Shown: positions 9,415 to 57,767, counted from the first letter of the stretch. The stretch: 64,000 nt of DNA from an uncultured Candidatus Berkelbacteria bacterium (GCA_963698075.1 OY969116.1:606131-670130); one strand, 5' to 3'. Made by a program: numbers and translations. The notes: generated by a model from the letters alone, not told the origin.

Positions 9415-9441
9415 TTTAGGCCTCCTTGCTTTTATCATAAA

Positions 9442-9472: not shown

Positions 9473-9655
9473 TATTATTTCAGTTATGATTGGAAGGTAA
9501 CTTTTCTGGACACTTCCTACCTTTCATCGGCAGTTTGACAACTGAATATTGCCAAAAAAGCCGCACCCAACCGATATACCCCCGCCAAAGACGGGGTTGC
9601 TGTTTTAGTCGGGAATCCACCATCGGCCTGCAGAGGCCAAGGAGAGCGAGGTATC

Positions 9656-10411: not shown

Positions 10412-10505
10412 GCGCACGCACGGACATTCGGGGGCCCCGCCGCGCATGGCGGGGCCCGATTGTATCGTCTGACACGCTGAACCACACTCTACAACGGAGG
10501 TCATT

Positions 10506-11867: not shown

Positions 11868-11964
11868 TCCGGCCAAGTGCCGATCCCCAGCGGGCGGCTC
11901 GAAAGCCGCCCGCTGGATTCTGATTCACACGACACTCTGACGTCACAAGGAGAGAGTTACAACC

Positions 11965-13743: not shown

Positions 13744-13913
13744 GTCCCTCATGAGCACGCCTATCAGAACCCCCGGTCACCCGACCGGGGGTTCTTCATA
13801 TCCAAGGCATTGACATTTATCTTGCCTTCTGGTATACTATTTGAGACGCAATTGAGTAACAGCCCGAGCCAAAGAACAAATTGCGCGCACATTCACAAGG
13901 AGCGCCAGTGACC

Positions 13914-15590: not shown

Positions 15591-15613
15591 AGCGATCCCA
15601 AGAACCCTTCCCA

Positions 15614-15646
15614 CCCCCGCGTCCCACGCGGGGGTGTTTCGTATTT
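15614..15646 (+). terminator. Intrinsic terminator of cassette B
   Basis: CCCCCGCG-tccca-CGCGGGGG followed by TGTTTCGTATTT. Confidence 0.55.
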
Positions 15647-15662
15647 ACAAATCTTTCTCGTT

Positions 15663-16631
15663 ATGCTATGCTTTGGTGTCATGACCATTCGTCAAACCTA
15701 TAATTTAGCCATCGCGATGGGCATTGCCGCTGATCCAAGGGGAAAGCGGGGGATTGAAAAGTGGCTCCAGCGCCAGCGCGCCAAATATAATAAACTTTCC
15801 CGCGATGAGCGCGCCTTATATGACCGCGAGCGCTTAACCAATCCTTATGCCGATACTCGCATTTTATTTGGCGATCCCAATGCCCGCGTCAAAACTATTT
15901 TAGCCGGCATTGATATTAATTCTGGCGATATAGCGCTTTCTAAAACCTTAAACCTGAAACCTGATCTCATCATCAACCACCATCCTCAAGGCAAAGCCCT
16001 GGCCGCTTTAGACGAGGTCATGAATTTACAAGCTGATTTGATGGCGGCCCAAGGCGTGCCCATCAATGTTGCCGAGGGCGTCATGAAAGCCCGCATCGAA
16101 CAAGTTTCCCGCACACTTGCCGGCGCCAATCACTACGAAACCGTTGACGCCGCCAAACTCGCTAAAATCCCATTTATGTGCACTCACACCGTTTGCGATA
16201 ATAATGTTTATAATTTTTTGACAAACTGGCTCGCCCACAAGCATTTTGAAACCGTTGGCGAATTAGTTGAGGCCCTCAAAAAGATTCCTGAATACAAAAT
16301 CGCCGCTCAAAACAATGCTGGTCCGCGCATCTTTGCCGGCTCACCCGAAAATCGAACTGGTAAAATTGTCGCTTTAGAAATCACTGGCGGCACCGAAGGG
16401 TCAAAAGAAGTTTATGAAAAATTAGCCCAAGCTGGAGTGGGCACGATTATCGGCATGCATATGAAAGATGAAAACCGCGAAGAAGCCCTCAAATATCACA
16501 TCAATGTCGTCATTGCCGGCCACATCTCTTCCGACTCCATCGGCATGAATTTGTTCTTAGATAAACTCGCTCAAAAAGGAATTAAAATCATCCCAGTTTC
16601 TGGTTTAATAAGAGTTAAGAGAACTAAATAA
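15663..16631 (+). CDS. Nif3-family dinuclear metal centre protein
   Basis: DLIINHHP (Nif3 D-L-I-x-HHP motif) and C-terminal VVIAGHISSDS. An alternative start is ATG 15681 (MTIRQ). Confidence 0.6.
   Translation: MLCFGVMTIRQTYNLAIAMGIAADPRGKRGIEKWLQRQRAKYNKLSRDERALYDRERLTNPYADTRILFGDPNARVKTILAGIDINSGDIALSKTLNLKPDLIINHHPQGKALAALDEVMNLQADLMAAQGVPINVAEGVMKARIEQVSRTLAGANHYETVDAAKLAKIPFMCTHTVCDNNVYNFLTNWLAHKHFETVGELVEALKKIPEYKIAAQNNAGPRIFAGSPENRTGKIVALEITGGTEGSKEVYEKLAQAGVGTIIGMHMKDENREEALKYHINVVIAGHISSDSIGMNLFLDKLAQKGIKIIPVSGLIRVKRTK
16559..16631 (+). repeat. Direct repeat copy 1 (Nif3 3' end); copy 2 is at 17393-17460
   Basis: The roughly 70 nt from ataaactcgctcaaaaagg... to ...ataa recur after the cofE stop at about 85% identity. 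Both copies keep the reading frame KLAQKGIKIIPVSGLIRV(K/R)R. Confidence 0.7.
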
Positions 16632-42958: not shown

Positions 42959-43048
42959 GGAGAGGTGCTGGAGTGGTTGATCAGGCCGCTCTCGAAAAGC
43001 GGTAAGTCCGCAAGGGCTTCGTGAGTTCGAATCTCACCCTCTCCGCCA
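42959..43048 (+). tRNA. tRNA-Ser (anticodon CGA), type II with long variable arm
   Basis: Acceptor GGAGAGG/CCTCTCC. D-arm with GG. 5-bp anticodon stem CCGCT/AGCGG with loop CT-CGA-AA. 18-nt variable arm. T-arm GTGAG-TTCGAAT-CTCAC. Discriminator G plus CCA. Confidence 0.85.
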
Positions 43049-43109
43049 GAATTACTTTGGAACTTTTTAAGACAGTGGAAAAGGACATAAGGTTGAGAAG
43101 AAAGCAAGA

Positions 43110-43131
43110 AAGACCGTTTTGGGTCTTTTTT
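43110..43131 (+). terminator. Intrinsic terminator after the tRNA
   Basis: AAGACC-gtttt-GGTCTT followed by TTTTT. Confidence 0.55.
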
Positions 43132-43160
43132 GGTGCCAAATAGGGCTATTTTTAAATGAT

Positions 43161-43184
43161 AGAGGAAGGGATTCGAACCTTTGC
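43161..43184 (-). other. tRNA 3'-half-like fragment (T-arm GGTTCGAATCC + acceptor-like CCTCT) on the opposite strand; possible att-site remnant
   Basis: Minus strand reads caaaGGTTCGAATCCcttcctct. It lies between tRNA-Ser and the 3' end of the serine recombinase gene. Confidence 0.35.
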
Positions 43185-43231
43185 TTTAACCATAAAAGGC
43201 TCCGTAGTTTGGAACCTTTCGCTAATATTGC

Positions 43232-44593
43232 CTATTGTTTGATGATAACTTGCTTATCTTGTAGGTAAATTGTTGTATTCAGGCAGCCGATTAGCTCTCT
43301 TTTTTGTTCCTTGGTGCCTTCTTGAAAGATGTATTTGATAAAATCAGGCGGAATGAGCTCATTTTCTGATTGATCGATGTTTTGTCCTTCTAAAGTACGC
43401 TTAATCAGCATAATTTTATCTAATTCCGGTTTTAAGATTGGTTTAACTTCGACTTCTTGGATTGGTGCCTGTTTTAGGTGTTCGGTTAGCTGTTCTACGA
43501 GCTTTTCTTCTCTGATATACGGTTCGGAACAGTCAAAATCATTAAATTGAGTGCAGTGATAGTAAATATATCTTCTTTTGGTCCCACTACTGAAGTTTCG
43601 AGTAATCTCCTGGGCTGTGATCCCCGAGTTGCACGAGCCACATTTGAATAATCTAGTGAAATCAAATTGTTTGGTACCAGGTTTTGATTTCGGCGGGACA
43701 ACCATTTTCTTCTGTACCGCATCAAATAACTCCTTGGAGATAATTGGTTCGTACGAACCTTTGTACCATTTGCCATCGTATGTAAAAAAGCCGGAATAAT
43801 ATGGATTATTAAGCATTTTATAGATAACACTCAGCGTTAATACCTTACCGTTTCGAGATCTAAAATTAGTTTCGTCTTTTAACCAGTCATATATATCACG
43901 GCCCGAACAACCTTCATATGCAACTTTTTCAAATATCTGTTTAATAATCGGAGCTCTTTCTTTGTCAACAAATACCTTTTTTAACCCTTTACCCGAATAA
44001 TAATCATTTAGATAGCCTAAAGGTGCAAAATTCGGTCTAAATCCCATCTCACACTTGGTTTTCTGACCTCTTTTAACATTAATGCCCCTGTTATCGTTTT
44101 CAAGTTTGGCTTGAGAGCAAAGAATCATTAAAAGGAACTTGTCATTTGGTGAATTGGTGAAAATTTGACCATGAGTTCTGATTTCCTTCAAATAGCCATT
44201 ATCCATCAAATCGATTATCGAGCCCAAATCTCCGGCATTTCGGCTTAATCTGTCCGGTGCCCAGCTCAATATCCCTTGAAACAAACCATTTTTGATATCG
44301 ACTATTAATTGATTCAAGACTGGTCTCATGCCGGTCGCTTTAGCCGAATGACTTTCTCTTCTAATATCAGTTACCAAAAGACCCTCATTTTGTGCCTGAA
44401 CGGCCATTTCTCTTATCTGGGAATCAATTGAAAGGGCCTGCCGTTCATCGTCTTCGCTGCTTTTTCGAGCGTAAAGACAGTAACGAACAGCCGCTTTTTG
44501 GGCTTCTGGGGCTTGAATTGGCTTGCCGTTTTGCTCCTTAGGTAGTAGAAGCGGCGAAGTATTGGTTAAATTTACTCCTTGGGGACTCATCAT
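43232..44593 (-). CDS. Large serine recombinase (integrase)
   Basis: N-terminal resolvase domain with catalytic-Ser region AVRYCLYARKSSEDDERQALSIDSQ. A recombinase domain and a C-terminal zinc ribbon (CGSCNSG...C). 453 aa. Adjacent to tRNA-Ser. Confidence 0.75.
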   Translation of the reverse strand: MMSPQGVNLTNTSPLLLPKEQNGKPIQAPEAQKAAVRYCLYARKSSEDDERQALSIDSQIREMAVQAQNEGLLVTDIRRESHSAKATGMRPVLNQLIVDIKNGLFQGILSWAPDRLSRNAGDLGSIIDLMDNGYLKEIRTHGQIFTNSPNDKFLLMILCSQAKLENDNRGINVKRGQKTKCEMGFRPNFAPLGYLNDYYSGKGLKKVFVDKERAPIIKQIFEKVAYEGCSGRDIYDWLKDETNFRSRNGKVLTLSVIYKMLNNPYYSGFFTYDGKWYKGSYEPIISKELFDAVQKKMVVPPKSKPGTKQFDFTRLFKCGSCNSGITAQEITRNFSSGTKRRYIYYHCTQFNDFDCSEPYIREEKLVEQLTEHLKQAPIQEVEVKPILKPELDKIMLIKRTLEGQNIDQSENELIPPDFIKYIFQEGTKEQKRELIGCLNTTIYLQDKQVIIKQ

Positions 44594-44793
44594 TACTCCT
44601 TAAACCTCTAGGTCAAGGGAGATGATACCGCCCATGTTGGGGAAGTCAAGGCCTAATTTTTAAAATCAACCAAAATGTCCACAAACCAGTAAAAAGCTTC
44701 CCAAATGACTTTAGCTATGCTAAAATCAGAGTAGTTTCAGAAATACCTTAAAAATCGCCTAAATCTCGCTTTTGCGGGACATGGCTCACAAAT

Positions 44794-44900
44794 CACACGC
44801 AAATAAAGACGGTCTTCCGACCGCACCATTTGCGTGTGTCTGTGCCCGAAAGGGTACAGGGTAGTCCCGAAAGGGGCTGCCGCGGTTCGGGAGACCATTT
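44794..44900. ncRNA. Candidate structured RNA or recombination-site region upstream of the recombinase
   Basis: 11-bp stem CACACGCAAAT (44794-44804) / ATTTGCGTGTG (44828-44838) enclosing GACGGTC-ttcc-GACCG. Then two GNRA-type hairpins CCC-GAAA-GGG (44845-44854 and 44866-44876). No ORF is supported there. Confidence 0.25.
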
Positions 44901-44960
44901 TTGTATTTAAAAAGGTTTTTGGTCGATAACCAATAATTAAAAGTTAGAAAGGAAAAAACA

Positions 44961-45416
44961 ATGGAAAACAAGAAAAAAGGGATGTCAACTTTGGCTAAAT
45001 TAGGCATTGGTTGTGGCGGTTTTATCATCCTTATTATCATTATCGCTGTAGCTGTCGGATCAGGTAGTAAGGGTTCCAACACCCAAAAGGTAACCAATCC
45101 CGAAAAATCTTCCGGAGAGACGACTACCAATCAGTCTAAACCTGCAACTGAAAAAATGACCATTACCAACTCAAACGCCAAAGATAAGGGTTATGGCATG
45201 TGGGAAGTGGTCGGCGAAGTCAAAAACAATGACTCGATTAAACATTCAGCTTTTTTAAAAGCCACCTTCTATGGTGATAGTGGTCAAATTTTAGGGACAG
45301 CATCTGGAGCGGTAAATGATGTCACGCCAGGTGAGACAAAAACCTTCAATCTGATCAGCACTGATTCTGTCACTGGCTACAAGGAAATGAAAGTCCAAGT
45401 CGACACCCTAATATAA
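44961..45416 (+). CDS. Membrane-anchored hypothetical protein
   Basis: GGAAAAAACA-ATG. One transmembrane helix (LAKLGIGCGGFIILIIIIAVAV), a Ser/Thr/Asn-rich linker and a beta-rich C-terminal domain. Confidence 0.5.
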   Translation: MENKKKGMSTLAKLGIGCGGFIILIIIIAVAVGSGSKGSNTQKVTNPEKSSGETTTNQSKPATEKMTITNSNAKDKGYGMWEVVGEVKNNDSIKHSAFLKATFYGDSGQILGTASGAVNDVTPGETKTFNLISTDSVTGYKEMKVQVDTLI

Positions 45417-45448
45417 GAGCAGGAGTTAAATTAGCAAAGGAGTTTTTT

Positions 45449-46114
45449 ATGAAAAAGCTGATTTTGGTTTTCTTTCTTTTGATGTTTATAACCATTCCAC
45501 TTACAAATGTCAAAGCGTCAGCACCCTTCGATGGTAAAATGATTGCTTTAGACGCTGGACATGGTGGAAGCGATACTGGGGCAGTCAACGGCGCGTATGG
45601 GCTGCAGGAAAAAGATGTTAATTTAGCGGTTGTTTATGCTTTAAGAGACAAGTTAAAATCGGCAGGTGCGACTGTTGTTTTAACGCGTGAAGAGGATGAG
45701 ACGATTGTTTCGCGCAAAGAACGGATTGATATTGCTAAACAAAAATGCGCCAGTTATGGCCGAGAGTGCGATATTTTAGTTTCCATGCACCACAACGGCT
45801 CATATGACCCTAGAACAGACGGAACAATGGTTATTTATAATGAAAAACAAGACAAACCTTTAGCTTTCGCTTTGCACGATAGTTTAATAAATAGCTTGGG
45901 ATTGCCTGACTTAGGATATGAAAATGGCGGTTATGGCATTACCGTTCATGGTCATTTGGTATCGGTTTTAACGGAGGCCTATTTTATCACAAATGACTAT
46001 GAAGCCCAGCAATATCTTTCCGGTAATCGCAAAGATCAAGAAGTCCAAGCTCTTTATGATGGCATAGGTATATATTTCATAAATAAGCCAGTGAAAAAGG
46101 GCCGAACAAACTAA
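45449..46114 (+). CDS. N-acetylmuramoyl-L-alanine amidase (Amidase_3 family; probable endolysin or cell-wall amidase)
   Basis: Signal peptide. IALDAGHGGSDTGAV...E..NL.....L...L...GA.VVLTRE is the Amidase_3 (CwlC/AmiC-type) motif. Confidence 0.7.
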   Translation: MKKLILVFFLLMFITIPLTNVKASAPFDGKMIALDAGHGGSDTGAVNGAYGLQEKDVNLAVVYALRDKLKSAGATVVLTREEDETIVSRKERIDIAKQKCASYGRECDILVSMHHNGSYDPRTDGTMVIYNEKQDKPLAFALHDSLINSLGLPDLGYENGGYGITVHGHLVSVLTEAYFITNDYEAQQYLSGNRKDQEVQALYDGIGIYFINKPVKKGRTN

Positions 46115-46143
46115 TTATTCAATAGTGAAATTTAATTAAGAAA

Positions 46144-47214
46144 TCAGTCCTTGATAATTTTTTCAATTTCTTTTCTGATGCCGTTACCTCGACAATGTTT
46201 TAGAATGCCAAGATAAGATTGGATACTCATCTCCAATAATTCTGCATCCAGCGAGCCGTCAAGAAACAATTGATAATTATATCGAATATTTTTTAATATC
46301 CGTCGTTTAGTTGTAGCCCGTAAGACTATATGGTGAGGAAATAGAACATATCCCAAGAAATCAATTCCCTGGGTCCATTTCTTTATATGAATTTTATGTG
46401 GATGAAGTTGCAGTAAAAGATGATTTTTTAAAAATCCTTCAAGAATAGGAATTAAACTTTCTAAATGTATTTTATCTCTACTGATAATGATGAAATCGTC
46501 TGCATATCTGACAAAACACTTAACACTTAATCCTCTTTTTACAAATTGGTCCATAGGATTCAAATAGATATTAGAGAAAAGCTGAGAAGTAAGATTGCCA
46601 AGCGGTATTCCCCGAGTCTTAAATGCAGAATTGACGCTTTCATAGCTCGTAATAATTTCTTTAAGGAGCCATAATAATTTTTTCTCCTCAATTTTTTCAG
46701 ATAATAGATCCATTAAAGCTTGATGGTCGACTGAATCAAAGAATTTTGAGATATCACATTTCAAGAACCAAACGGGTTTAGTGTTATTTTTAGATAATCT
46801 CCAAGCAAGCTTTTGGCATTTCCTAATAGCTTTATGAGTGCCTTTGTTTTTCCGGCTGGAGTAAGAATCAAAGATAAAACCTTTATCAAATAATGGTTCG
46901 ATAACCCTCATTATCGCGTGATGGAGGACCCTGTCTTTGACTTGGGCTTTGTGAATATGTCTTAGCTTCGGATCACAAATATAAAAAGAGGCATAACTTG
47001 AATGCCGATAAGACAGATTTAGGAGGTCATAATGTAAAGCAAAGATATTGTTCTCAAGGTTTATTCCGAACTCTCTTACATCTGCTTTTTTCTCTTTTCC
47101 CACCTTAAACTCTTTCCAAGCAGCAAATAAATTATTAAGTGAGATTATTTGGAGGTATAAATTATGAATAACACTTTCGCTATCAACAAATTCTTCGATA
47201 TTTCTATTATCCAT
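46144..47214 (-). CDS. Diversity-generating retroelement reverse transcriptase
   Basis: RT motifs: KPVWFLKCDISKFFDSVDH, IPLGNLTSQLFSNIYL (the DGR-diagnostic [ILV]GxxxSQ in place of QGxxxSP), RYADDFII (YADD), QGIDFLGY. 356 aa with a short thumb. It lies adjacent to Avd, TR and VRs. Confidence 0.85.
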   Translation of the reverse strand: MDNRNIEEFVDSESVIHNLYLQIISLNNLFAAWKEFKVGKEKKADVREFGINLENNIFALHYDLLNLSYRHSSYASFYICDPKLRHIHKAQVKDRVLHHAIMRVIEPLFDKGFIFDSYSSRKNKGTHKAIRKCQKLAWRLSKNNTKPVWFLKCDISKFFDSVDHQALMDLLSEKIEEKKLLWLLKEIITSYESVNSAFKTRGIPLGNLTSQLFSNIYLNPMDQFVKRGLSVKCFVRYADDFIIISRDKIHLESLIPILEGFLKNHLLLQLHPHKIHIKKWTQGIDFLGYVLFPHHIVLRATTKRRILKNIRYNYQLFLDGSLDAELLEMSIQSYLGILKHCRGNGIRKEIEKIIKD

Positions 47215-47532
47215 AAGACCTATAAATTCTATTTACATTTATATTCGGTTAATCAAACCTTGCCCAAAAAAGATCGTTATGGTTTAGGTCTGAAAACGGA
47301 AAATTTAGCGATGCAAATGCTCGAAATGCTTTTTGAAGCCAATGCTAAATCCGGAAGCCAAAGGGTTGAGATGCTAAACAAAATAGATTTGAAACTTAAA
47401 GTTTTACAGACCGTTATCCGACTTTGCTGGGAAGCAAAAGCGCTTGATGAAAATAAGTACATAAAACTACAAGAGCTTTTACAGGAAATCGGAAAAATGC
47501 TCGGTGGTTGGATCAAAGCAACCAAAATGTAA
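47164..47532 (+). CDS. avd: DGR accessory variability determinant (Avd, four-helix-bundle protein)
   Basis: YSVNQTLPKKDRYGLGLKTENLAMQMLEMLFEAN...LQELLQEIGKMLGGWIKA aligns with Bordetella phage bAvd (YPIAQSIPRKHGVAREMFL...IAEVGRILGSWIAR). GGAGG RBS. It is on the opposite strand to the RT and overlaps its 5' end by about 50 nt. Confidence 0.75.
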   Translation: MNNTFAINKFFDISIIHKTYKFYLHLYSVNQTLPKKDRYGLGLKTENLAMQMLEMLFEANAKSGSQRVEMLNKIDLKLKVLQTVIRLCWEAKALDENKYIKLQELLQEIGKMLGGWIKATKM

Positions 47533-47557
47533 TTGACTTGTGGATAAGAACTTTTAA

Positions 47558-47681
47558 GACTTCGGGAGAAGGAAACGCCGAGATTGTCATTCCGATTGTC
47601 AGGTTCATTCGCATTGACATTGACACCATCAGACTTGAAGTTGCCGACATTGACGAGCTTGCCCTCAGAGTTCCGACGTTT
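47558..47681 (-). repeat. DGR template repeat (TR), template sense on the minus strand
   Basis: 124 bp, homologous to VR1 and VR2. In template sense it encodes Asn-rich KRRNSEGKLVNVGNFKSDGVNVNANEPDNRNDNLGVSFSRS (AAY codons). It is not within a gene. Confidence 0.85.
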
Positions 47682-47968
47682 CCTACACTTTTCCATCCAA
47701 GGCAGCAGTAATATGTGGTTTTTACCCAGACATTACTTGTATTAATATGTGGCAGCATCCGCTTAATGAGCGAAACCTGCACCAGAAAAGTGTAGAGCAG
47801 TCTTAATTTAGTAGGCGAAGCGCATCCGTAAACACGCTTTCATTGCCTAATAACATTTTACCAGCAATTTAGTAATTCTAAAAGAAGAGATCTATATAAA
47901 AAATTTTGGATCGGCTGCCAACCCAGAGGGTTGGCAGATCAAAGTTTCAAATATCAACGCTCAAAGTG

Positions 47969-48937
47969 TCAACGACTGCGGGAGAAGGAAACGCCGAGAG
48001 CGCCACCCCGATCGCCAGGTCCATCCGCATCGACACAGACACCATCAGACCCGAAGCCGCCGACACCGACGAGCCCGCCCCCAGAGTTCCGACGACCAGT
48101 CCAAGAATAAATATTTTCTAGTAATCTTTGCTCATTATTTTCACGGTACATTATAAGGTCATAGAGAGCCTCTACCGGTTTTTGTCGTGTTAATTCAGTA
48201 ATTTTAAGCGCCTCTAGTCGTGCAGCTGCCTCTTTCCAATCAGAATCGATTAAACGCTCAATTTCCGAACGTTTGCCATTAAATTCTTCAACGGCTTCCT
48301 GAAATTCTTTTGGCAATGCACCACCCGGAAACGCCTGATTAAGATAGCCTATAATAGTATCTGTCTGTTCGAGATAGTTTTTACTTGTAGAATCGGGAAT
48401 AACTTCTTTGGAAGTAAGCGCCCATTCCATTTGTGGTGTTTCTTCGGTAAAAAATTTCTCGCCTTTATACCAATCAGTATCGTAGAGAACTTTTTCGTCC
48501 CTTCCTTCAAAACGAGCCGAAAGAAGACCCTCCATGCGTTCCATAGTCAGCGGGCTACCGTCAAGGTCACAATTTGCTCTTAAAACTAAGAATTGACCCA
48601 ACCCCTTCGCTTTTTCGAGTTCAGTTGCACTAAAAGGAATACTGGGGACTTCGGCGGAATTTATTTTTATCCCGAATGCCTTTTCGACTTCTTCTGGGCC
48701 CAGGCAATCACTACCTAAAATTTCTTTAGCTTTTTCAACCTGTTTGGCAATCTCACCACCCAATTCCGGTTCGGAAGTTATCCCAAATAGCCCTTTCAAT
48801 TCAAGAGCTTTTTGCAGAATCGCTTCATAGTCGGCGTCGGTCCTAGCACGACTTCGAAGTACAGTGATTTCTTTAGCAATTGTTATGCCTTGTGTCTCTT
48901 TTTCAGCGTCTTCTGGAGTTGGACCAAATTCGCTCAT
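47969..48937 (-). CDS. DGR target protein 1 (C-type-lectin/FGE-like C-terminal domain carrying VR1)
   Basis: C-terminus ..NIYSWTGRRNSGGGLVGVGGFGSDGVCVDADGPGDRGGALGVSFSRSR* matches the CLec VR pattern (..RGGSW...PDNRN..GFR). The body is paralogous to the C-terminal 250 aa of target 2. Confidence 0.75.
   Translation of the reverse strand: MSEFGPTPEDAEKETQGITIAKEITVLRSRARTDADYEAILQKALELKGLFGITSEPELGGEIAKQVEKAKEILGSDCLGPEEVEKAFGIKINSAEVPSIPFSATELEKAKGLGQFLVLRANCDLDGSPLTMERMEGLLSARFEGRDEKVLYDTDWYKGEKFFTEETPQMEWALTSKEVIPDSTSKNYLEQTDTIIGYLNQAFPGGALPKEFQEAVEEFNGKRSEIERLIDSDWKEAAARLEALKITELTRQKPVEALYDLIMYRENNEQRLLENIYSWTGRRNSGGGLVGVGGFGSDGVCVDADGPGDRGGALGVSFSRSR
47974..48097 (-). repeat. DGR variable repeat VR1
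   Basis: 21 mismatches against the TR, all at TR template-sense A positions (plus-strand T in TR becomes C, G or A). The flanking 25 nt including the stop are identical or nearly identical (IMH-like GGGAGAAGGAAACGCCGAG). Confidence 0.85.
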
Positions 48938-49023
48938 ATTTTTATTCCTTTACCTATTAAATAAAATTTGTATCGACCGCCTCCGGCGGATCAAAGCCAC
49001 AAATATCAAATAACAAAGTTACA

Positions 49024-49148
49024 GACTGCGGGAGAAGGAAACGCCGAGATCGCCACCCCGATCGCCAGGCTCAGGCGCACCGACATCGACACCATCAGAC
49101 CCGAAGCCGCCGACACCTGACGAGCCTGCCCCCAGAGCGCCGACGTTT
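49024..49148 (-). repeat. DGR variable repeat VR2 (contains a 1-nt insertion relative to TR and VR1)
   Basis: About 22 mismatches against the TR, all at template-sense A positions. There is one extra nucleotide at about 49116-49118 (plus strand caCCTga against TR caTTga). Confidence 0.8.
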
Positions 49149-51113
49149 TGTCCAGGTATAAACATTGGGAAGCAATCGCTCGCCTGTGGTTTGAAAGTAC
49201 GCCGCAAGATCATAGAGCGCTTCAGCGGGTGTTTGTCGAGTAAGCTCGGTGATTTGTAACCCTTCAAGCATTTCAGCCGCCTTTCGCCAGTCAGAAGAAA
49301 GAGTCTCAGCAATACCACCTCTTGCCTTTTGAAATTCATCAATGGCAGTCCGGTAAGCTTCAGGCAATGGACGATCTTTAAAGACTTGATTTTGTAGATA
49401 ATCGACGACCCTATCAGTTTGATCAAGATAATTTTTGCTTGTTGTCTCGGGGACTACGTCTTTTGAGACTAAAGCCCACTTCACTTCCATTTTTTCTTCG
49501 CGCAAGAATTTCTCGTCTTTATACCAGCAATCGTCTTTAAGTTTACCGGTTTTTTCGTCAAAAGCGTAAAGGAGCTTTTTTCCGTCTTTTACTTTACCGC
49601 TTAACTTTTCGTTAATTTCAGCCATAGTCATCGGCAAGCGCAAAACTAACATTTGCCCGAGCTCTTTTGCCCTCTCTAATTCTTCTTTAGAGAACGGAAT
49701 AGCCGGTGCTTCAACACTACCTTCAATACCAAAAGCATTTTTGGCTTCTTCTGGTCCAACAAAGTCTGCTCCCATGATCGTCTTAGCTTCTAAGATATCC
49801 GGCGAAAGCACCGTTTCACTGCTTCTTAAAGCTTCCTTGACAGAATCTGGAACTTCTGGTCTTGTCAATAAATCCGCAAGTTCCTTTTCGGTACGGGTTT
49901 TAGTAGTGCTTTCTGGACGGCTCGCTTGCTCGTCGAGCGTTCTTCTTCTTGTTTCGGCGGTCGGTACATAACCGACATGACGGATCAATTCCTCTAGTTT
50001 TTGTCTTTCAGTCGGAGATTCTAATTTATTAAGATAGTAATATCTTAAGGCGGTTTGGACGGTATCATTAATATCACCACTATAGAAACGCAGGACGAAA
50101 TCTCTGACCCGTCGGGGTTCCATGCGGTCATCGAAGGTAAAAGGTTGAGGTTGATCAGCACCTACTTTTCGTTCTTTGACCATTTCTTTGGCTGCACGAT
50201 GGAATTCTTGATACTTTTGCAGAACCTCCTGCATTCCTGGTATTTCGGCCAATGCTTCTGGTGAAAGTTTATTCTCTCTTGAAACAAGAAAGGATTTTTC
50301 CGATACTTCTTCGGTGGTTTGAACCAAACCAAAAAGAGCTTCAGTTGAATAATTAAAAGTGTCGGGTGGTAAATCAGTGACTTCTTTTTGATAAACCCAA
50401 CGACGAAGTTGAGCTGGATCGAGTGGCTCTCGACCGAAATAACCCTTGCCAGGCGGGTTCATAAAAGCGACAATTTTAGTTTTTTGTTTGCTGACCTCAA
50501 CTGATTCCGAGGCGTCTTCAGAAAGAACGACCTCGCCGTTTCTTTCTATCGCGTCTAAAACCTCATGCAAACGAATTAAAATGTTAGGGGCAGCGGCATT
50601 GATTTCGTCTAAAACAACTACTTTGGTTTTACCTTCCTCTTGTCTTAAACCGGCGGTGACTCGGCCATCGGCAAAAACATATTCTGGATCGTCTGGTTTG
50701 GTTCGGTGAGGATTAGGAATATAACGACCCATCAGGTCCTCAACATCGGTCGCGCCGTTCAAGTTGGCATAATGGACCTCCCAACCAAGCTCTGAACACA
50801 TTTTCCTGGCGGTGGTTGTTTTACCGACACTTGTGCCGGCCTCTACTAAGATCGGGTCTCCCTCTAACCAACTAACAGCTATCTTTTGTTGCAGTTCTAA
50901 GGCGAAACGATCACTAATATAATCTTGGTATTGCTCACGCTTGGGTGTAAATTCAGAAGTAGTTTTGGCTTTTTCTAAACGCACACCCAAATAAGAGACG
51001 GCAGTTTCGTCTTCTTGGACAGGCCGGCGAGTTTCGGGGTTGACCCGGGTCTGACTAACGGTCTCTTCCGATTCCGAAGCCGGATTAAAGTTAGATTCTG
51101 GTGAATTTGGCAT
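49095..51113 (-). CDS. DGR target protein 2: MoxR-like AAA+ (AAA_5) ATPase fused to a CLec-like domain; C-terminus frameshifted inside VR2
   Basis: Walker A ILVEAGTSVGKTTTARKM, Walker B KVVVLDEINAA, NPPGKGYFGREPLDPAQLRRW (MoxR/AAA_5 signature). The C-terminal 250 aa are paralogous to target 1. The reading frame ends TWTKRRRSGGRLVRCRRLRV*, whereas the alternative frame (ORF 49019-49426) continues ..GVGGFGSDGVDVGAPEPGDRGGDLGVSFSRSL* as in target 1. Confidence 0.7.
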   Translation of the reverse strand: MPNSPESNFNPASESEETVSQTRVNPETRRPVQEDETAVSYLGVRLEKAKTTSEFTPKREQYQDYISDRFALELQQKIAVSWLEGDPILVEAGTSVGKTTTARKMCSELGWEVHYANLNGATDVEDLMGRYIPNPHRTKPDDPEYVFADGRVTAGLRQEEGKTKVVVLDEINAAAPNILIRLHEVLDAIERNGEVVLSEDASESVEVSKQKTKIVAFMNPPGKGYFGREPLDPAQLRRWVYQKEVTDLPPDTFNYSTEALFGLVQTTEEVSEKSFLVSRENKLSPEALAEIPGMQEVLQKYQEFHRAAKEMVKERKVGADQPQPFTFDDRMEPRRVRDFVLRFYSGDINDTVQTALRYYYLNKLESPTERQKLEELIRHVGYVPTAETRRRTLDEQASRPESTTKTRTEKELADLLTRPEVPDSVKEALRSSETVLSPDILEAKTIMGADFVGPEEAKNAFGIEGSVEAPAIPFSKEELERAKELGQMLVLRLPMTMAEINEKLSGKVKDGKKLLYAFDEKTGKLKDDCWYKDEKFLREEKMEVKWALVSKDVVPETTSKNYLDQTDRVVDYLQNQVFKDRPLPEAYRTAIDEFQKARGGIAETLSSDWRKAAEMLEGLQITELTRQTPAEALYDLAAYFQTTGERLLPNVYTWTKRRRSGGRLVRCRRLRV

Positions 51114-51120: not shown

Positions 51121-51525
51121 TTAAATTCGATAAGTTAAACCAACTCGTTCCAAAATATTATAATTGATACTAATGTTTTTAAGTATTTCATCGGTAGTCA
51201 AAAAGATAATACCTGTGTCTTGGTATTCTACTGAGTAAACCGTTGGTTGCATCGTATCGTGGTCAAAAAACTCAATTTGCCCCGTGGGATACTGAACTAT
51301 AAAATCATACTCTGGTTTAATGTCGCTACCCAACACTAAGAAATTTCTCTTATTATTTTTAATATTTTGCGCTAACTGGATAGCAGATTTAGATTCTATA
51401 AAATTTTCTTTTTTAAAGATTTCTTGGAATTCTTTTAATTCAGATTCATTACGAGCAATTGCCAAAGAAATCTCTTTTTGGCCTATTGTTAAATTTAAAA
51501 ATTGCTGAAACTTTTTTGTATCCAT
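51121..51525 (-). CDS. Hypothetical protein co-operonic with the AAA+/vWA genes
   Basis: 134-aa ORF between the vWA gene and the AAA+ target, with an 8-nt gap to the downstream gene. Confidence 0.45.
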   Translation of the reverse strand: MDTKKFQQFLNLTIGQKEISLAIARNESELKEFQEIFKKENFIESKSAIQLAQNIKNNKRNFLVLGSDIKPEYDFIVQYPTGQIEFFDHDTMQPTVYSVEYQDTGIIFLTTDEILKNISINYNILERVGLTYRI

Positions 51526-51538: not shown

Positions 51539-53605
51539 TCAAAATTTATCATAGTTAGCAATTACTTCGCGAATCAGATCGGCTAACTTTTCAGCCATTT
51601 CTTTAATGTTGACATCGGCTAAGCTATTAGGATAATATCTTTCAACATGTTTAGTACCGGGACCGATTCCTAAACCAATCAATTTTTGATTGGTTTCACT
51701 TAATATCCTTTGGACCATTTTTCCTAAATCGTACGTTGCTCGTGGGTGCATGAGTGACTCTTCGGGTCTGCCGTCTGATAAAACGATTAGGAATTTTTCG
51801 GCAGCCTTTTGTCTATTCAGTCTTTCCGAAGCCCGCTCTAGTGCCCAACCGTCGTCGTTCCATCGAGCCTTGCCCGTATCGCTCGTGTCGCTAACTTCCT
51901 GAAGCATGCCGCCCATATTCTCTCTGATGGAACTGGCCATTGGCTCCCCGAAGCTTTGATATTCATAAATACGATCATTAAAACCGAGTATCTCAGTTTG
52001 TATGGATAGACGGTTTAGAACTTCAGCAAGCACAATCACCGCCTTAAATGTCTCGTCGATTTTTTCACCCTGCATTGAGCCAGAAAGATCAGCTAGAAGT
52101 GTAATCGCATAATCTTTTTCTGCAGGCAACTCACGTCGTTCCCAGGCCTTACTTTCCATTGCTGGTATGCCTTTAGCTTTTTCTTGGATTCTCTTTTTAA
52201 TATCAATTCTTTTACCAGTGCGAAAACCGCCATCCCATTGATGGGCACGCCTGGCAACGAACAACTCTCTTAAATCTTGCTCCAGCTGGTCAATAATCGG
52301 CAAAACTTCTCGGCGATATCGCTCGTAGATATTAGCGTCTTTTTTAAGTTCTTTGGCTACCAATTCTCGATATTTTCTGATTTCTTCAGATTCTTCTGGT
52401 CTCGTAGGAGGAGGTCCTTCAGAGACTTTTGGACGTTCGGAAATTTCTTCGGTTGCTCTATCGGCCTTCTTTTCGGGATCATCCGATAACTTGCCTCCTA
52501 TTTCTTCATTCAGTTCTTTTTCAAAATCTTTAAGTGCCGCTTCGGCTTTTTCCTGCAGTTCTTTTTTCTTTTCTTCTGGCAAAGAATCGATATAATCTTG
52601 TATTTTTTGCTTTAGCTCTTCGGAGAATGAGTCCATATCTATCGGCATAGGTTGACCTTCTGCCTGTTGCTTTTGCGCTTCCTCCAAAGCTTTTTTGATT
52701 GCCTCTTCAAGAGTTTTTTGTTCTTCAGGCGTTAATTTATCCGTTAGCTCTTGTGGTTGACCTTGACCTTCACTCGTGGCTTGTTCCATCTCTTTTAATA
52801 ACTCTTGGGTTTGCTGGTCTTCCATATCTTTTTCAACCAGTTTTTTGAATTCTGGCCAAACCCGATCTCTATTAATTTCATACGATCTTTCTGCATACCG
52901 ACTGATTAATTCTTCGCTTTTATCAGCTTCGGCTCTTGAAGGATACCGCCACCAAGAATCTCTGGCTGATTCCAAAGTAGTCGAGACAACGACTTTGACG
53001 TCTTCTGGCAAATCTTCAGAGATTTTTATTTCTTCACCTCTGATTTCTCCAAACCATTGTCTAATATATTCATATCCCGCCTGCATAAACTTGGGTTTGC
53101 GTCCAAGTTTATCTTGAGCTTCTTCGCTCATTTTACTCTGCGATTCAAAAAATTTTCCCCATGCAATATCAACATTTTCTTGATATTTTGGATAACTTTC
53201 AGCCACAAAATTATCACTCCTTGGATCTTCAATAAAGTTTGACATCGCCGAAAATCCAGGCTGTTGCCATACTTCCAAAGGAATAAATTCCGTTCTACTT
53301 ACCCTGCGATGGCCGCCTTCATGGCAGATTAGATAACGAAGTTCGTCAATCGGTTTTTCCAAAAGATCTTTGGGATCTATCCGGATTTTGTTTTCCTTAA
53401 AATCCCAATGCCAACCCTTTCCTGGTTCGTTCAATTCGACTGGAATTCTAAAATCTTTGCCGATAAAAAAGGCAAGTGATGATAGAATTTGTCTTTTCCT
53501 TTCAATCTCCGCAAGATCAGATTCAGTGAATTCAGGGTTAGATTCTGGCTGTTCAGTTCCTCCTAGATAATCCTCTGTTGAATTGTATGTTTCCGGATTA
53601 GCCAT
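51539..53605 (-). CDS. vWA-domain protein with N-terminal HExxH metallopeptidase-like motif
   Basis: LICHEGGHRRVS (HExxH). Acidic coiled-coil middle. C-terminal vWA with MIDAS DLSGSM (DxSxS) and ..VLSDGRPEE. The usual partner of a MoxR AAA+ ATPase. Confidence 0.65.
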   Translation of the reverse strand: MANPETYNSTEDYLGGTEQPESNPEFTESDLAEIERKRQILSSLAFFIGKDFRIPVELNEPGKGWHWDFKENKIRIDPKDLLEKPIDELRYLICHEGGHRRVSRTEFIPLEVWQQPGFSAMSNFIEDPRSDNFVAESYPKYQENVDIAWGKFFESQSKMSEEAQDKLGRKPKFMQAGYEYIRQWFGEIRGEEIKISEDLPEDVKVVVSTTLESARDSWWRYPSRAEADKSEELISRYAERSYEINRDRVWPEFKKLVEKDMEDQQTQELLKEMEQATSEGQGQPQELTDKLTPEEQKTLEEAIKKALEEAQKQQAEGQPMPIDMDSFSEELKQKIQDYIDSLPEEKKKELQEKAEAALKDFEKELNEEIGGKLSDDPEKKADRATEEISERPKVSEGPPPTRPEESEEIRKYRELVAKELKKDANIYERYRREVLPIIDQLEQDLRELFVARRAHQWDGGFRTGKRIDIKKRIQEKAKGIPAMESKAWERRELPAEKDYAITLLADLSGSMQGEKIDETFKAVIVLAEVLNRLSIQTEILGFNDRIYEYQSFGEPMASSIRENMGGMLQEVSDTSDTGKARWNDDGWALERASERLNRQKAAEKFLIVLSDGRPEESLMHPRATYDLGKMVQRILSETNQKLIGLGIGPGTKHVERYYPNSLADVNIKEMAEKLADLIREVIANYDKF

Positions 53606-53697: not shown

Positions 53698-54591
53698 CTA
53701 AAATTCATTGTTAAAACCCAATCCTCGGCCATGATTAGCAAATAATTCTTTGGTTTCCTTGTCAATAAAATCTGCTAAATCCTTGCGAGTTTTCCTACGA
53801 GGAATCATACCTGTGATGCCCCTGTTATTAATGCCTATTCTTTTTACAACCATAAAGGATGTCTGCTGATCATTTTTTTCTATTATCTTTAAGATTAGCA
53901 CCGTAAACGCATCGACCAAATCATTGTGTTTGGTTACGCCAAAATTAAGTAGCTGATCGATAAGTTGGTCAGCGCCCTTTTCCGGAAACAATATCCATTT
54001 ATTGAATATCCAAGTTGCAGCCATCTCAAGTCGCGCTCGCTTATCCATGCCATGAATTTGCAAACCCTCAGCCCGAAAACAGCTTTCGCGGAGAAGCTGG
54101 GTCAAATATCCTTGAAGCATCACCTCCTCGACATAAATCGAGGTTGAATACCGACCGAAACTCTTGGCGATTATTTTAATCTTTTCGATAGTCTGGGGAA
54201 TTTGCATCCGCTCGTTAATCGGATTCGGCAAAATATATATTCTTTTTTCATCGCCTGAGCCGATAATCATACAGGAAACGATGGCAGTGTAATCGGCGCT
54301 GTCTTTTTCGCTTATTGCCAGGTCAACTCCCAAGGCATATTCGTAATGCTGTCCTCTAAGAGGTTGGGGCAAGTCTCGGTAATACCCAATCCAATCTCTT
54401 GAAATAATTGGCTCGCGATTGTCAATGATTTTTAGGAGGTATTCGCGGCTCCAAGTAAACTTATTGCCGATCTTTTTTCTTTTCTTTTTCAACCGCTTCA
54501 AGATTAGGGAATTTTCCGGGCCACATGACGGTCCCGTTATCGGTAACGATCGGATATTCCTTGTATACTCCGCTTCGAATGCCTTCGGCAA
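53698..54591 (-). pseudogene. Large terminase subunit, C-terminal nuclease domain, separated from the ATPase domain by a frameshift
   Basis: RNase-H-like terminase nuclease motifs (..GDEKRIYILPNP.., KHNDLVDAF). It overlaps the ATPase ORF by 131 nt in another frame within an A/T homopolymer-rich stretch (ttttttcttttctttttc, 54470-54490). Confidence 0.5.
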
Positions 54592-55282
54592 TTTCGTTTT
54601 TTAGTCGCATAAGGAGACAATCGCTATGCAAAATATTTCCGGTTATAACAACCTTCGTGTTTTTATCTCCGAGCGGCAGAATTTCGCTCGTAAACCAATC
54701 GTAAGTGGCGTCTCTACCCTCTTGTGTTTTCACGCTCGAAAGGTCGTCTGGATCGTCTACGACCACCAAATCCGGACGGTATGCTCCGTGTTTAATGCCG
54801 CGAATAGCCTGCTCTTTAGAGGCAACGATTATACGGGCCTTGTAATTTTTAATGAAGATTGTTTGAGCATTCCATTCATCACTTTCGTCTCTAAATGGCC
54901 CCAAGTCTTCTTTAAGAAGATCGTTGGTTGCCAATTCGTTTTTGAGATTTTTAAAATGCAAGGCAGCCTGTTCTTTAACCTGGCTAACAATCAAGATGAA
55001 TTTTTTGGATTGAACACCTAAGATTCCCCATATCGGGTAACTCAGTGTATTGATCACGCTCTTGCCTGAATTTCTGAAGGCGCACAAGACGACAAGGGGA
55101 ATTGACTGGTCTTCGGTTAAAGCAAATATCACTTTTTGAAACATTGCAGTTTTGTACTTTAAATAGCGGCTAAAATATACGCTGAAGAATACCTCATGAT
55201 TTTCTCTTGTCAGTGCAATTCTTGTGGCTTTGTCTTTTTTAATGTAATCAAACAAGTTATTTTTTCTTTTTTTGCGTTTCAT
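54461..55282 (-). CDS. Large terminase subunit, N-terminal ATPase domain
   Basis: Walker A CAFRNSGKS, Walker B/coupling LVVVDDPDD and VVITGN. Confidence 0.55.
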   Translation of the reverse strand: MKRKKRKNNLFDYIKKDKATRIALTRENHEVFFSVYFSRYLKYKTAMFQKVIFALTEDQSIPLVVLCAFRNSGKSVINTLSYPIWGILGVQSKKFILIVSQVKEQAALHFKNLKNELATNDLLKEDLGPFRDESDEWNAQTIFIKNYKARIIVASKEQAIRGIKHGAYRPDLVVVDDPDDLSSVKTQEGRDATYDWFTSEILPLGDKNTKVVITGNILHSDCLLMRLKNEIAEGIRSGVYKEYPIVTDNGTVMWPGKFPNLEAVEKEKKKDRQ

Positions 55283-55706
55283 TTTTGCTCCTTTTAGTTT
55301 TAATTAAAGAAGCCAGTTCAAGAGCTTTCTTGATACTTGCTTCTTGTTCTGGTGTTAATTTTTCGTTTTGGGTCGTGATGTTACCACTAACCTCAAGTTT
55401 ATTGGCATAGGCTTTATGCCTATGATTTAACCAATAAAATATTGCACTTATATTCTGATCTTTTATTGCTTGAAGTAGTTGACTTTCGGTTAGGTCGTTT
55501 ACTAAAGCGATGCCTTCTTGAAGTGCAAGATCGGCAGCTCTAGCGAACTTTTTATCGTGGTTGTACCAGCGATAATAAGTTTGGCGAGAAATACTAGATT
55601 TTTCGCAAGAGGCTTGGATAATTGGGATTCTCTTGAGATTTTCAATAAAGATTTCTTTTTGTTTTACTTTTCTAATTTCAATTTTTCTGGATTCACCTTT
55701 AAACAT
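55257..55706 (-). CDS. Small terminase subunit-like HTH protein
   Basis: 149 aa. HTH SISRQTYYRWYNHDKKFARAADLAL. Immediately upstream of the large terminase. Confidence 0.45.
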   Translation of the reverse strand: MFKGESRKIEIRKVKQKEIFIENLKRIPIIQASCEKSSISRQTYYRWYNHDKKFARAADLALQEGIALVNDLTESQLLQAIKDQNISAIFYWLNHRHKAYANKLEVSGNITTQNEKLTPEQEASIKKALELASLIKTKRSKNETQKKKK

Positions 55707-55714
55707 TGATACTC

Positions 55715-56488
55715 CTAACTAATCTTCGTCGCTTTAAGACCGGTCACTTTAGCAACTCGATCAATTGCGGTTCTAACATATTCGGGGTCAAGCTCGATCC
55801 CGTAGCACTTCCTTTTAACTTGTTCGGCAGCCAGAATGCTACTCCCTGATCCCAAAAATCCATCGTAAATGACATCTCCAATCCTAGAACTATTAAGTAT
55901 AAGGTTCCTTAAAAGTCCGATCGGCTTCATTGTTGGATGAAGTTTGGATTTGTTTGGTTTGGGGTAGAAGAGCAGACTCTTATCTTTTGATTTACGAAAC
56001 TCATGCGTTCCAAGCCATCCGAAGGCGACTAATTCATGCTGTGGCAAGTAATTGAGTCTACCAATTACTGGATGGCTTTTTACCCATATAAGCAATTGTG
56101 CGAACTTAAACCCTGCCTGAAGCATTCCTTCTCTTAGCGCAAAAATCATTTTGTCACTATTGAAAATGTACGCACTATTTTTTTGAGCAAGATAAGGCTT
56201 TATTGCCTCTAACCATTCTGTTGTGAATTGTCGATATTCATCGTCAGTCTGTTCTTGATCATTAAGAATCGCCTTATGTTTGTATGACTTTTGGAAGATT
56301 TGCTTGCTTTCGCTTAGAGAAACTCCGTAAGGAGGATCTATAAGCAAGATCTTAACTTTTTCATTTTCGATTAATTTTTTAATTATTTCTGGGTCTCGAG
56401 CATCCCCATTAATAATTTTATGATCACCGATTTTGAACATATCCCTATAATTAATATTATCTTTTTCCATTTGGAACTCCTTTCGCAA
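55715..56488 (-). CDS. DNA N6-adenine/N4-cytosine methyltransferase (beta class)
   Basis: Motif IV LLIDPPYGV (DPPY) precedes motif I VIYDGFLGSGSSILAAEQ. pfam01555-like. Confidence 0.7.
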   Translation of the reverse strand: MRKEFQMEKDNINYRDMFKIGDHKIINGDARDPEIIKKLIENEKVKILLIDPPYGVSLSESKQIFQKSYKHKAILNDQEQTDDEYRQFTTEWLEAIKPYLAQKNSAYIFNSDKMIFALREGMLQAGFKFAQLLIWVKSHPVIGRLNYLPQHELVAFGWLGTHEFRKSKDKSLLFYPKPNKSKLHPTMKPIGLLRNLILNSSRIGDVIYDGFLGSGSSILAAEQVKRKCYGIELDPEYVRTAIDRVAKVTGLKATKIS

Positions 56489-57767
56489 TTAATTTTGGTT
56501 TTTCACCAGTCAAGGTCTCAAAACGTTTCAATATCAGATCAACGAAGATCGGCTCTTTTTCAACCATCGCTACCTTTCTTTTTAGCTGGACCGCTGCGGA
56601 CATCACAGGGCCAGATCCAGCAAACATATCCAGAATTAAATCGCCGGGCCGCGTGCAACGCCTTAAGGGTTTTTCAAAAAGCGTAGCTGGTTTTTCTGTC
56701 GGATGCTCATAGTTTTGCCCTGCAATCCTTTTGACCATCCAGATGTCCAGTTGGTCAAGGATGTCGTCAATCTGCCGATTCCCGGTTGCAATTTGCTTGT
56801 TTAAGATTTCTGTAAGATTTGGACACTTTGGGGAGGTGTATGGCTTGCCACGTGTGCCATACGTAACTGGTTCATATGACTTATTGAATGCCACTTGAGG
56901 CGTAGGGTTAAAAGCTCCCTTTATCCAGAGACAGGTACGGACAGGCTTGATGTTCAATTTTTTATATAGCGTTTGAATCAGCCAGACATAGCTTTGGTCG
57001 GAAAAGTAAAAATAATGTGAATCTTTTTTACTGAACTTAATTGCATTTGTTATGCTCTGTTTTAAAAATTCTTTATATTCTTCGTCGCTTTTGCTATCAT
57101 CAACATGACCGCCATATGAGGATTTACCGCCAATTCCTGAATTGTAATCGAGAGAAATATTAAAAGGTGGATCGCAACACACCATGTCTGCATGCTTACC
57201 AGACATAAGTATTTCAATTGCTTTTTCATTGAGGGAATCCGCACATAAAAGTCTGTTTTCGCCTAACGAATAAAGATCACCTTCTTTTGAGGCAGGACTC
57301 TTAATTCGTTCAAGCTCTTTGTGGGCGTCAAATTCATCTTCTGAAACCTCTAAAGCATCATCAAAAATGTTCGAAATCTCAAAATCTTTAAATCCTGCTT
57401 CCAAAACTACATCGATATCAAAGCTTCTTAATAAATCATAATCCCATGAGCCATTCGAAATGTTCATTTTCAGTAAAATATCTTTTTCTTTTTTTGGATC
57501 GCTAACACAGATTCTAACCACCGGAACTTTCTGAAGTTTAAGTCTTTGTGCAGCCACAAGTCTCAAGTTACCCGAAAGCACTATATTCTCTCGATCTGGA
57601 GCAGAATTGACTATCAGAGGGTTTATAATCCCGTGGTCTTTGAAACTTCCCATTACTTTCTGGATTTCCTGCTCGCCGAATGTTCGGGGATTTCCAGGGT
57701 AGAATTTAAGTGATTTTACATCGACATATTCGATGGAAATTTTCTCTTTCAATTTTTCTTTGTTCAT
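56457..57767 (-). CDS. ParB-like nuclease domain fused to a DNA methyltransferase
   Basis: N-terminal ParB/Srx YPGNPRTFGEQEIQKVMGSFKDHGIINPLIV. MTase motif IV CCDPPFNI and motif I ILDMFAGSGPVMSAAVQ. Confidence 0.7.
   Translation of the reverse strand: MNKEKLKEKISIEYVDVKSLKFYPGNPRTFGEQEIQKVMGSFKDHGIINPLIVNSAPDRENIVLSGNLRLVAAQRLKLQKVPVVRICVSDPKKEKDILLKMNISNGSWDYDLLRSFDIDVVLEAGFKDFEISNIFDDALEVSEDEFDAHKELERIKSPASKEGDLYSLGENRLLCADSLNEKAIEILMSGKHADMVCCDPPFNISLDYNSGIGGKSSYGGHVDDSKSDEEYKEFLKQSITNAIKFSKKDSHYFYFSDQSYVWLIQTLYKKLNIKPVRTCLWIKGAFNPTPQVAFNKSYEPVTYGTRGKPYTSPKCPNLTEILNKQIATGNRQIDDILDQLDIWMVKRIAGQNYEHPTEKPATLFEKPLRRCTRPGDLILDMFAGSGPVMSAAVQLKRKVAMVEKEPIFVDLILKRFETLTGEKPKLIAKGVPNGKR

Follow-up and report, generated by a model that had tools for sequence, protein, structure and literature searches.

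A CPR-type diversity-generating retroelement with two variable targets, one fused to an AAA ATPase, in an uncultured Candidatus Berkelbacteria bacterium

We identified a diversity-generating retroelement (DGR) in a 64,000-nt stretch of DNA from an uncultured Candidatus Berkelbacteria bacterium (GCA_963698075.1, OY969116.1:606131-670130), hereafter the window, whose positions are counted from its first letter. The DGR occupies positions 46144-51113 and includes a reverse transcriptase (RT), an avd gene, a template repeat (TR) and two variable repeats (VR1 and VR2), each forming the 3′ end of one of a pair of paralogous target genes. We consider it very probable (roughly 0.92) that this locus is a chromosomal DGR of a lineage of Patescibacteria (candidate phyla radiation, CPR) with the layout TR-(avd)-RT. 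This assignment is carried by repeats that differ only at template adenines, by the identity of RT and Avd, by conservation throughout a family of related loci and by heterogeneity of VR2 within one population. An earlier reading of the window, made from the sequence alone (the sequence-only reading), had described a complete DGR at this position; its repeats, adenine-specific differences, RT, Avd and VR position all hold.

A repeat search of the window returned one family of three copies (47558-47678, 47974-48094 and 49024-49144). Explicit alignment placed the TR at 47558-47681 (124 nt), VR1 at 47974-48097 (124 nt) and VR2 at 49024-49148 (125 nt), all on the minus strand and with the boundaries that had been proposed before. 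The TR is non-coding and lies directly past the avd stop codon, on the strand opposite avd. VR1 and VR2 form the 3′ ends of target genes 1 and 2, respectively, with a stop codon 5 nt past the end of each VR, and no further VRs were found in the window. The alignment of TR and VR1 contained 25 mismatches (21 A>G, 2 A>T and 2 A>C), all 25 at TR adenines, and that of TR and VR2 contained 22 (18 A>G and 4 A>C), again all at TR adenines, plus a 1-nt insertion. When mismatches were tabulated by TR base, every substitution in both VRs thus fell on an A, as the sequence-only reading had stated. Its count of 21 mismatches for VR1 was too low; its figure of about 22 for VR2 was correct for substitutions, and the insertion had gone unnoticed. 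With 33 A in the 124 nt of the TR, the hypergeometric probability that all mismatches fall on A is 1.3e-19 for VR1 and 1.4e-16 for VR2.

The translated TR reads KRRNSEGKLVNVGNFKSDGVNVNANEPDNRNDNLGVSFSRS, and the richness in AAY codons that had been remarked on earlier amounts to nine such codons. Codon position 1 or 2 holds 30 of the 33 TR adenines. Seventeen codons, with 31 adenines among them, are recodable, which corresponds to ∼1e17 possible peptides per target. A→G changes dominated in the VRs of the window (39/47, or 83% of adenine substitutions), and these VRs are very Gly-rich because adenine substitutions are biased to G. The source of this bias may be either the misincorporation spectrum of the RT or selection.

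A scan of species-representative genomes found 73 related loci, which belonged to CPR. In the 26 loci with an identifiable TR, 702 of 730 TR/VR mismatches were at a TR A. Variation at the protein level was distributed in the same places: among 50 family members, column entropy was 2.66 bits for the 17 recodable codons, 0.59 bits for the other VR codons and 1.29 bits for residues 96-280, which precede the VR. A search with target 1 returned 222 homologs. All those with a source name were of Patescibacteria type, and one, on a 929-kb contig, was 100% identical.

The RT gene (46144-47214, minus strand) codes for a 356-aa protein that matched Pfam RVT_1 (2e-26). An LGNLTSQ motif is present at residue 205, in agreement with the pattern [ILV]GxxxSQ, and YADD is present at residue 237. 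The top match among solved structures was 8ub7 (E value 2e-38), a 328-aa chain deposited as 'Reverse transcriptase', which we believe is bRT from phage BPP-1. It was followed by a 'Retron-type reverse transcriptase' (3e-20) and a group II intron RT (6.5e-20). The earlier proposal of a DGR-type RT, based on LGNLTSQ, is therefore borne out by both the motif and the comparison of 2e-38 for bRT versus ∼1e-20 for group II or retron-type chains. In the alignment with bRT, an R was found opposite R74 and an L opposite I181, the two bRT residues known to promote adenine mutagenesis (PMC7826257).

These data also bear on ordinary paralogy, in which the TR would be what is left of a decaying pseudogene for a target C-terminus, and the RT would be a group II intron or retron enzyme with no connection to it. 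The top NCBIfam match of the RT was indeed a group II intron model, with a score (155 bits) far under the 300-bit cutoff, and homology between the TR flank and the VR flanks reaches ∼70 nt beyond the initiation of mutagenic homing (IMH) block described below, as a duplication would leave. However, all 47 substitutions lie at TR adenines, the same bias recurs in the 26 independent loci, the RT is far closer to bRT than to group II or retron-type chains, and an Rfam search found no intron RNA or retron ncRNA. On these grounds we rejected paralogy, to which we give next to no weight.

The avd gene (47164-47532, plus strand) encodes a 122-aa protein that was recognized by NCBIfam DivGenRetAVD (87 bits, cutoff 80) and by Pfam bAvd (71 bits, cutoff 40; 1.4e-19). 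The sequence-only reading had placed RT and an Avd homolog on the two sides of the TR. The identity of Avd was confirmed, but the arrangement was not: the RT, the TR and both targets share the minus strand, avd lies antiparallel to them, and the order is TR-(avd)-RT. Most related loci containing an RT had the same order. The 5′ ends of the RT and avd genes overlap by 51 nt (47164-47214), and this divergent overlap recurs in the closest relatives; as a consequence, the promoter of each gene must sit inside the coding sequence of the other. The gene caller used for the twin contig shortened the RT to 319 aa, avoiding the avd overlap. The long RT open reading frame (ORF) with the overlap appears better supported than this 319-aa version, because bRT aligns from RT residue 18 and the relatives align from residue 1.

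We then compared the 3′ ends of the repeats. The conserved block TCTCGGCGTTTCCTTCTCCCG[A/C]AGTC occurred in exactly three copies in the window, with zero expected for its 20-nt core. The copies are an IMH*-like TR 3′ end (TCTCGGCGTTTCCTTCTCCCGAAGTC, 47558-47583), the IMH of VR1 (47974-47999) and the IMH of VR2 (49024-49049), all on the minus strand. The ∼25 conserved nucleotides previously noted at the VR 3′ end thus correspond to a 26-nt block common to the TR and both VRs, which is identical except for one base: the TR has CCCGAAGTC and the VRs have CCCGCAGTC. This base is A in the TR (47562) and C in VR1 (47978) and VR2 (49028), and the change is synonymous (CGA vs CGC). The claim that all differences reflect templated adenines accordingly needs one amendment: it is right by position, but the A/C difference in this block is a fixed IMH*/IMH mark. 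Across the 26 related loci, which come from diverse CPR lineages, the TR keeps the A and C is found in ∼37 of roughly 45 VRs, whereas the family's mutagenized sites have G in 61% of cases, C in 20% and T in 19%. Because the TR keeps A and nearly all VRs have C in these loci, the difference did not arise by mutagenesis. The base seems to act as a fixed IMH*/IMH discriminator, a function that the pattern of conservation points to. It may also mark where information transfer stops on the 3′ side, and with it the cDNA start, across this whole clade of DGRs.

Past the IMH, homology among the three copies fades, but a CTTTGATC motif is kept in all of them. After this motif, a GC-rich hairpin follows each VR on the minus strand: one with a 9-bp stem at 47915-47937, 37 nt downstream of VR1, and one with a 5-bp stem at 48977-48989, downstream of VR2. 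The z scores of DNA folding were −2.7 and −2.1 at these hairpins and −0.5 at the TR flank, where a hairpin is absent and the equivalent positions are antisense to the sequence for the Avd C-terminus. Hairpins after both VRs and none after the TR fit the rule that such structures accompany the VR and not the TR. A GC-rich inverted repeat past the IMH is not universal, being present in 34% of the DGRs studied by Wu et al. (PMC5758913). The two hairpins are candidate DGR target-site inverted repeats or terminators.

Since avd lies antiparallel between TR and RT, any transcript that continued past the TR 3′ end as a 'spacer' RNA would run antisense through avd. We considered a long TR-spacer RNA of this kind with a conserved structure and rejected it, since a terminator-like hairpin follows the TR in most of the 26 relatives. 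This hairpin (in L002, L003, L006, L010, L011, L015, L020, L037 and others) is GC-rich, comes with a T-run and stands directly 3′ of the TR. It is terminator-like in the TR sense and would stop the TR RNA before antisense avd. The window and two relatives (L001 and L005) are without a hairpin directly after the TR. One promoter-like site (47882-47855, minus strand) falls in the interval from target 1 to the TR; the region has no more such sites than expected by chance.

By analogy with the DGR of phage BPP-1, an RNA containing the 124-nt TR would be made from the minus strand. An RT-Avd complex would copy this RNA into cDNA, misincorporating opposite template adenines, and the cDNA would replace the homologous VR at the 3′ end of either target gene. 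The shared 26-nt IMH block would guide the replacement, possibly together with the GC hairpins downstream of each VR. Recoding of the 17 codons through their 31 adenines could in this way generate ∼1e17 protein variants per target. Most likely, the DGR retunes the ligand specificity of an intracellular recognition machine composed of an ATPase and a vWA protein, and not a surface adhesin or a phage tail fiber.

Evidence for recent change came from two additional contigs of the Logan assemblies (run ERR10755944), which represent the same population as the window. One contig (L075) was 100% identical to window positions 43019-47999 (4,981 nt), and the other (L074) was 99.97% identical to positions 63605-49021 (14,586 nt). 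The ends of both contigs fall within an IMH, as is typical when an assembly breaks at a hypervariable repeat. L074 and the window differed at five sites in 14,586 aligned bases, and four of these were in VR2. Three were substitutions (49107, 49081 and 49051), 3/3 at TR-adenine sites, and the fourth was an indel (window 49115, L074 14492), with one extra base in the window. Across the 19.6 kb covered by both contigs there was a single difference outside VR2. Within one population, substitutions in VR2 vary only at adenine-templated sites, a small-scale version of the check for hypervariability confined to A sites that the sequence-only reading had proposed. The single difference outside VR2 is an indel in an A-run of the vWA gene (window 52568, L074 11038): the gene is intact in the window (688 aa) and split into 358 + 274 aa in L074, probably by a sequencing or assembly error in one of the assemblies.

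As a result of the additional base, the target 2 ORF of the window stops inside VR2, and its last 27 codons are in another frame. In L074, target 2 is in frame and has 697 aa, just as the frame-corrected window sequence predicts. The frameshift is thus either an artefact of the consensus or an allele carried by a minority, and not a sign of a dead target.

Several points weigh against an active DGR of the kind proposed here. VR2 is out of frame in the window assembly. At the place of the indel, L074 has AGG where the TR has AAT, a change that includes a non-adenine T>G; the VR2 codon at 49115 is therefore anomalous in both assemblies, and may be a consensus artefact. The VR hairpins lie ∼37–40 nt past the IMH, one of them is terminator-like, and they could simply be terminators. 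Finally, we infer the cDNA and retrohoming steps from the BPP-1 paradigm, and we likewise infer what the target module does.

Some of these points would fit a fossil DGR, which once diversified both genes and is now inactive, its VR differences being relics of the past: the window has a frameshift in VR2, L074 shows just three substitutions, and present activity is read from sequence comparison and not from cDNA. Yet the RT ORF is intact with both YADD and the SQ motif, as are avd, the TR and both IMH copies; the two assemblies differ, over 19.6 kb, almost only in VR2 and at TR-A sites; and target 2 is in frame in L074. We consider a fossil element very unlikely and rejected it for these reasons. 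The DGR is apparently active, and the comparison of assemblies is indirect evidence for ongoing mutagenic retrohoming.

Target gene 1 (47969-48937, minus strand) encodes a 322-aa protein with N-terminal helices followed by a predicted FGE-type C-type-lectin-like (CLec) domain. Target gene 2 (49019-51113, minus strand) encodes an AAA_5 ATPase of the MoxR/CobS/midasin type (Pfam AAA_5, 9e-14) joined to the C-terminal domain that target 1 also has. Its ORF in the window has 672 aa (49095-51113) and becomes 697 aa once the frame is corrected. Its Walker B motif (VVVLDE) is intact, and a Walker A-like sequence (AGTSVGKT) was read by eye from the translation. The C-terminal ∼260 aa of the two targets are 52% identical after frame correction, in support of the earlier description of two paralogous minus-strand genes with VRs at their 3′ ends. 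The variable codons lie within the last 41 residues of the lectin-like domain.

The lectin-like domain had no match in Pfam, NCBIfam, PADLOC or PDB, whether a single sequence or a 50-sequence profile was used. An AlphaFold2 model of target 1, built from the 50-sequence alignment, had a mean predicted local distance difference test score (pLDDT) of 88. A large α-helical insertion, with helices spanning residues 188-268, is located in this model between elements of the lectin fold. Foldseek searches with the target 1 model returned matches without significance (E ≥ 0.8), and searches against viral models gave no significant structural match for the targets. We assign an FGE-type C-type-lectin-like fold to the C-terminal domain of the targets with moderate confidence; a CLec/FGE fold of the VRs had been expected by the sequence-only reading, and the predicted model supports it at this level.

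Two genes upstream of the targets belong to the same syntenic module. One codes for a vWA (CobT-like) protein of 688 aa (51539-53605, minus strand; Pfam CobT_C + VWA). It has a DLSGS motif of the metal ion-dependent adhesion site (MIDAS), and the MIDAS is kept in 21/21 homologs. An N-terminal HEGGH sequence (HExxH) is present in 19/19 homologs and suggests a metallopeptidase-like domain that is not recognized by Pfam. The other gene (51121-51525, minus strand) encodes a conserved 134-aa protein, designated P134, which lies between the vWA and AAA::CLec genes in ∼19 related loci and for which family searches, Pfam, NCBIfam and PADLOC included, returned no match. The vWA protein is presumed to be the partner of the AAA+ target, and its gene was syntenic in 23 related loci. 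In most loci with a contig that was long enough, the gene order was vWA-P134-AAA::CLec-CLec-TR-(avd)-RT. The vWA-P134-AAA::CLec-CLec module was present in about two dozen of the 73 related loci. PADLOC gave no match to the module proteins except a marginal one to the AAA target (mad8, E value 4e-4). A hydrophobic-segment check detected no signal peptide or transmembrane segment in the target-module proteins; the vWA protein, P134 and both targets look cytoplasmic, judging from their sequences.

The layout and target type of this locus are well represented among CPR DGRs. Architecture B3, TR-(avd)-RT, represented 90% of the set of CPR DGRs in Wu et al. 2018 (PMC5758913), and the coordinates given above conform to it, including avd on the reverse strand. 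The same study described some CPR targets with P-loop/midasin AAA motifs (category g1, UVR4), leaving the VR fold unassigned; here, an AAA_5 domain, which is dynein/midasin-related, lies upstream of VR2. Doré et al. 2024 (PMC10907252), in a passage that cites Paul et al. 2017, name CLec fused to an AAA ATPase as the target architecture seen most often in CPR. Roux et al. 2021 (PMC8144416) found that CPR DGRs form their own RT clade and that CPR targets are without recognizable membrane domains. Our locus shares with these DGRs the CPR host, a reverse-strand avd within the TR-(avd)-RT layout, several targets per TR, one target with an N-terminal AAA/P-loop ATPase and a C-terminal VR, and targets without recognizable membrane or secretion signals. 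Nothing essential differs, the comparison with g1/UVR4 and RT clade 2 having been made by published description. The fold of the CPR VR domains was left open by Wu et al., whereas the structure predicted here supports an FGE-type CLec with a long helical insertion.

The locus is thus an ordinary representative of the best-known CPR DGR design and not a new type of system. The enrichment of DGRs in CPR is known, and both the layout and the type of target have been on record since 2017–2018. The value of the locus is that of a clean reference example on a 929-kb contig, which resolves the TR, both targets, the hairpins and the IMH/IMH* pair, and the population-level evidence of VR change adds to this. 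What the analysis adds, and may be of use to those studying CPR DGRs, is the structural case that the 'unknown-fold' VR domains of CPR are FGE-type lectin folds, the conserved vWA-P134-AAA::CLec-CLec module, and the fixed single-base IMH/IMH* discriminator. The antiparallel avd, the absence of the VR2 frameshift from the twin assembly and the indirect signs of current activity are further additions. What a cytoplasmic, ATPase-fused hypervariable lectin does is a question that has already been posed by others.

Compared with the BPP-1 DGR (mtd-avd-TR-brt), the locus has a homologous RT and Avd, adenine-specific mutagenesis, a VR at the 3′ end of a CLec-fold target (a predicted fold in our case), an IMH/IMH* pair and, as candidate counterparts of the BPP-1 GC-rich inverted repeat, a hairpin behind each VR and none behind the TR. 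Unlike in BPP-1, avd is on the opposite strand and between TR and RT, IMH and IMH* differ by a single base, and the hairpins lie ∼37–40 nt from the IMH. In addition, instead of a tail fiber, there are two targets that look like cytoplasmic proteins of the cell. Comparison with TvpA of Treponema denticola and other variable proteins with FGE-type CLec domains revealed no detectable sequence similarity. In contrast to TvpA-type proteins, the targets have no lipoprotein or secretion signal and have a large predicted helical insertion, and the Foldseek E values were not significant.

DGR-diversified FGE domains also occur on MoxR-vWA 'ternary' conflict systems in cyanobacteria and other multicellular bacteria (PMC7159879). 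These systems (PMC7159879, PMC10907252) and the present module have in common a MoxR-clade AAA+ protein, a vWA protein and a DGR-diversified FGE/CLec domain, and all components look cytoplasmic. However, the lectin domain is here on the AAA+ ATPase and not on the vWA protein, the third component is the 134-aa protein, the vWA protein has a conserved HExxH, and the host is a CPR bacterium with a small genome. Searches of Pfam, NCBIfam and PADLOC detected no VMAP, peptidase, TIR or other effector families in P134 or neighboring proteins. A VMAP ternary conflict system was rejected on two grounds, the lack of a VMAP or effector and the location of the lectin domain on the ATPase. A tentative idea, which we hold to be possible but would not favor, is that the four genes (the HExxH vWA protein, P134, AAA+::CLec and free CLec) form a CPR-specific cytoplasmic recognition machine that is continually reprogrammed by the DGR. 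It might serve as an innate-immune-like sensor or a host-interaction chaperone, and would differ from VMAP ternary systems in carrying the variable lectin on the hexameric ATPase itself.

The cassette is located just downstream of yidC, jag and tRNA-Ser (cga), and phage-like genes are found on both sides of it (42959-46114 and 53698-57767). They include a large serine integrase, an amidase-type endolysin, a small terminase and a large terminase whose sequence is divided between overlapping ORFs (53698-54591 and 54461-55282). Two DNA methylases, one of which is fused to ParB, are also among the flanking genes. Such a neighborhood, with integrase, endolysin-type amidase and both terminases beside tRNA-Ser, is what one might expect of a DGR of phage or prophage origin that changes host tropism in the manner of BPP-1 and whose targets are receptor-binding proteins. 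Against this origin, no capsid, portal or tail genes were recognized in the window, none of the 73 related loci had the phage-like genes next to the module, the targets had no significant structural match among viral proteins, one of them is fused to an AAA+ ATPase and goes together with a vWA protein, and a signal peptide or transmembrane segment was found in none of these proteins. We therefore rejected tropism switching as highly improbable. No att-like repeat of tRNA-Ser was found in the window, where a 14-mer repeat was looked for. In our view the DGR module is a cellular cassette, which at this locus lies next to or within a degraded mobile element.

Two further observations concern the surrounding sequence. 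An Rfam LOOT RNA motif (44756-44881, plus strand) scored 74 bits against a gathering score of 46.4 and lies between the integrase gene and a gene for a small predicted membrane protein. In the region 6000-16000, GC content was 0.52–0.62, with a peak of 0.62 at 10–14 kb (including dnaK, 11965-13743), and the rest of the window was mostly at ∼0.32–0.47. Several long ORFs that overlap on both strands of this region are probably artefacts of composition.

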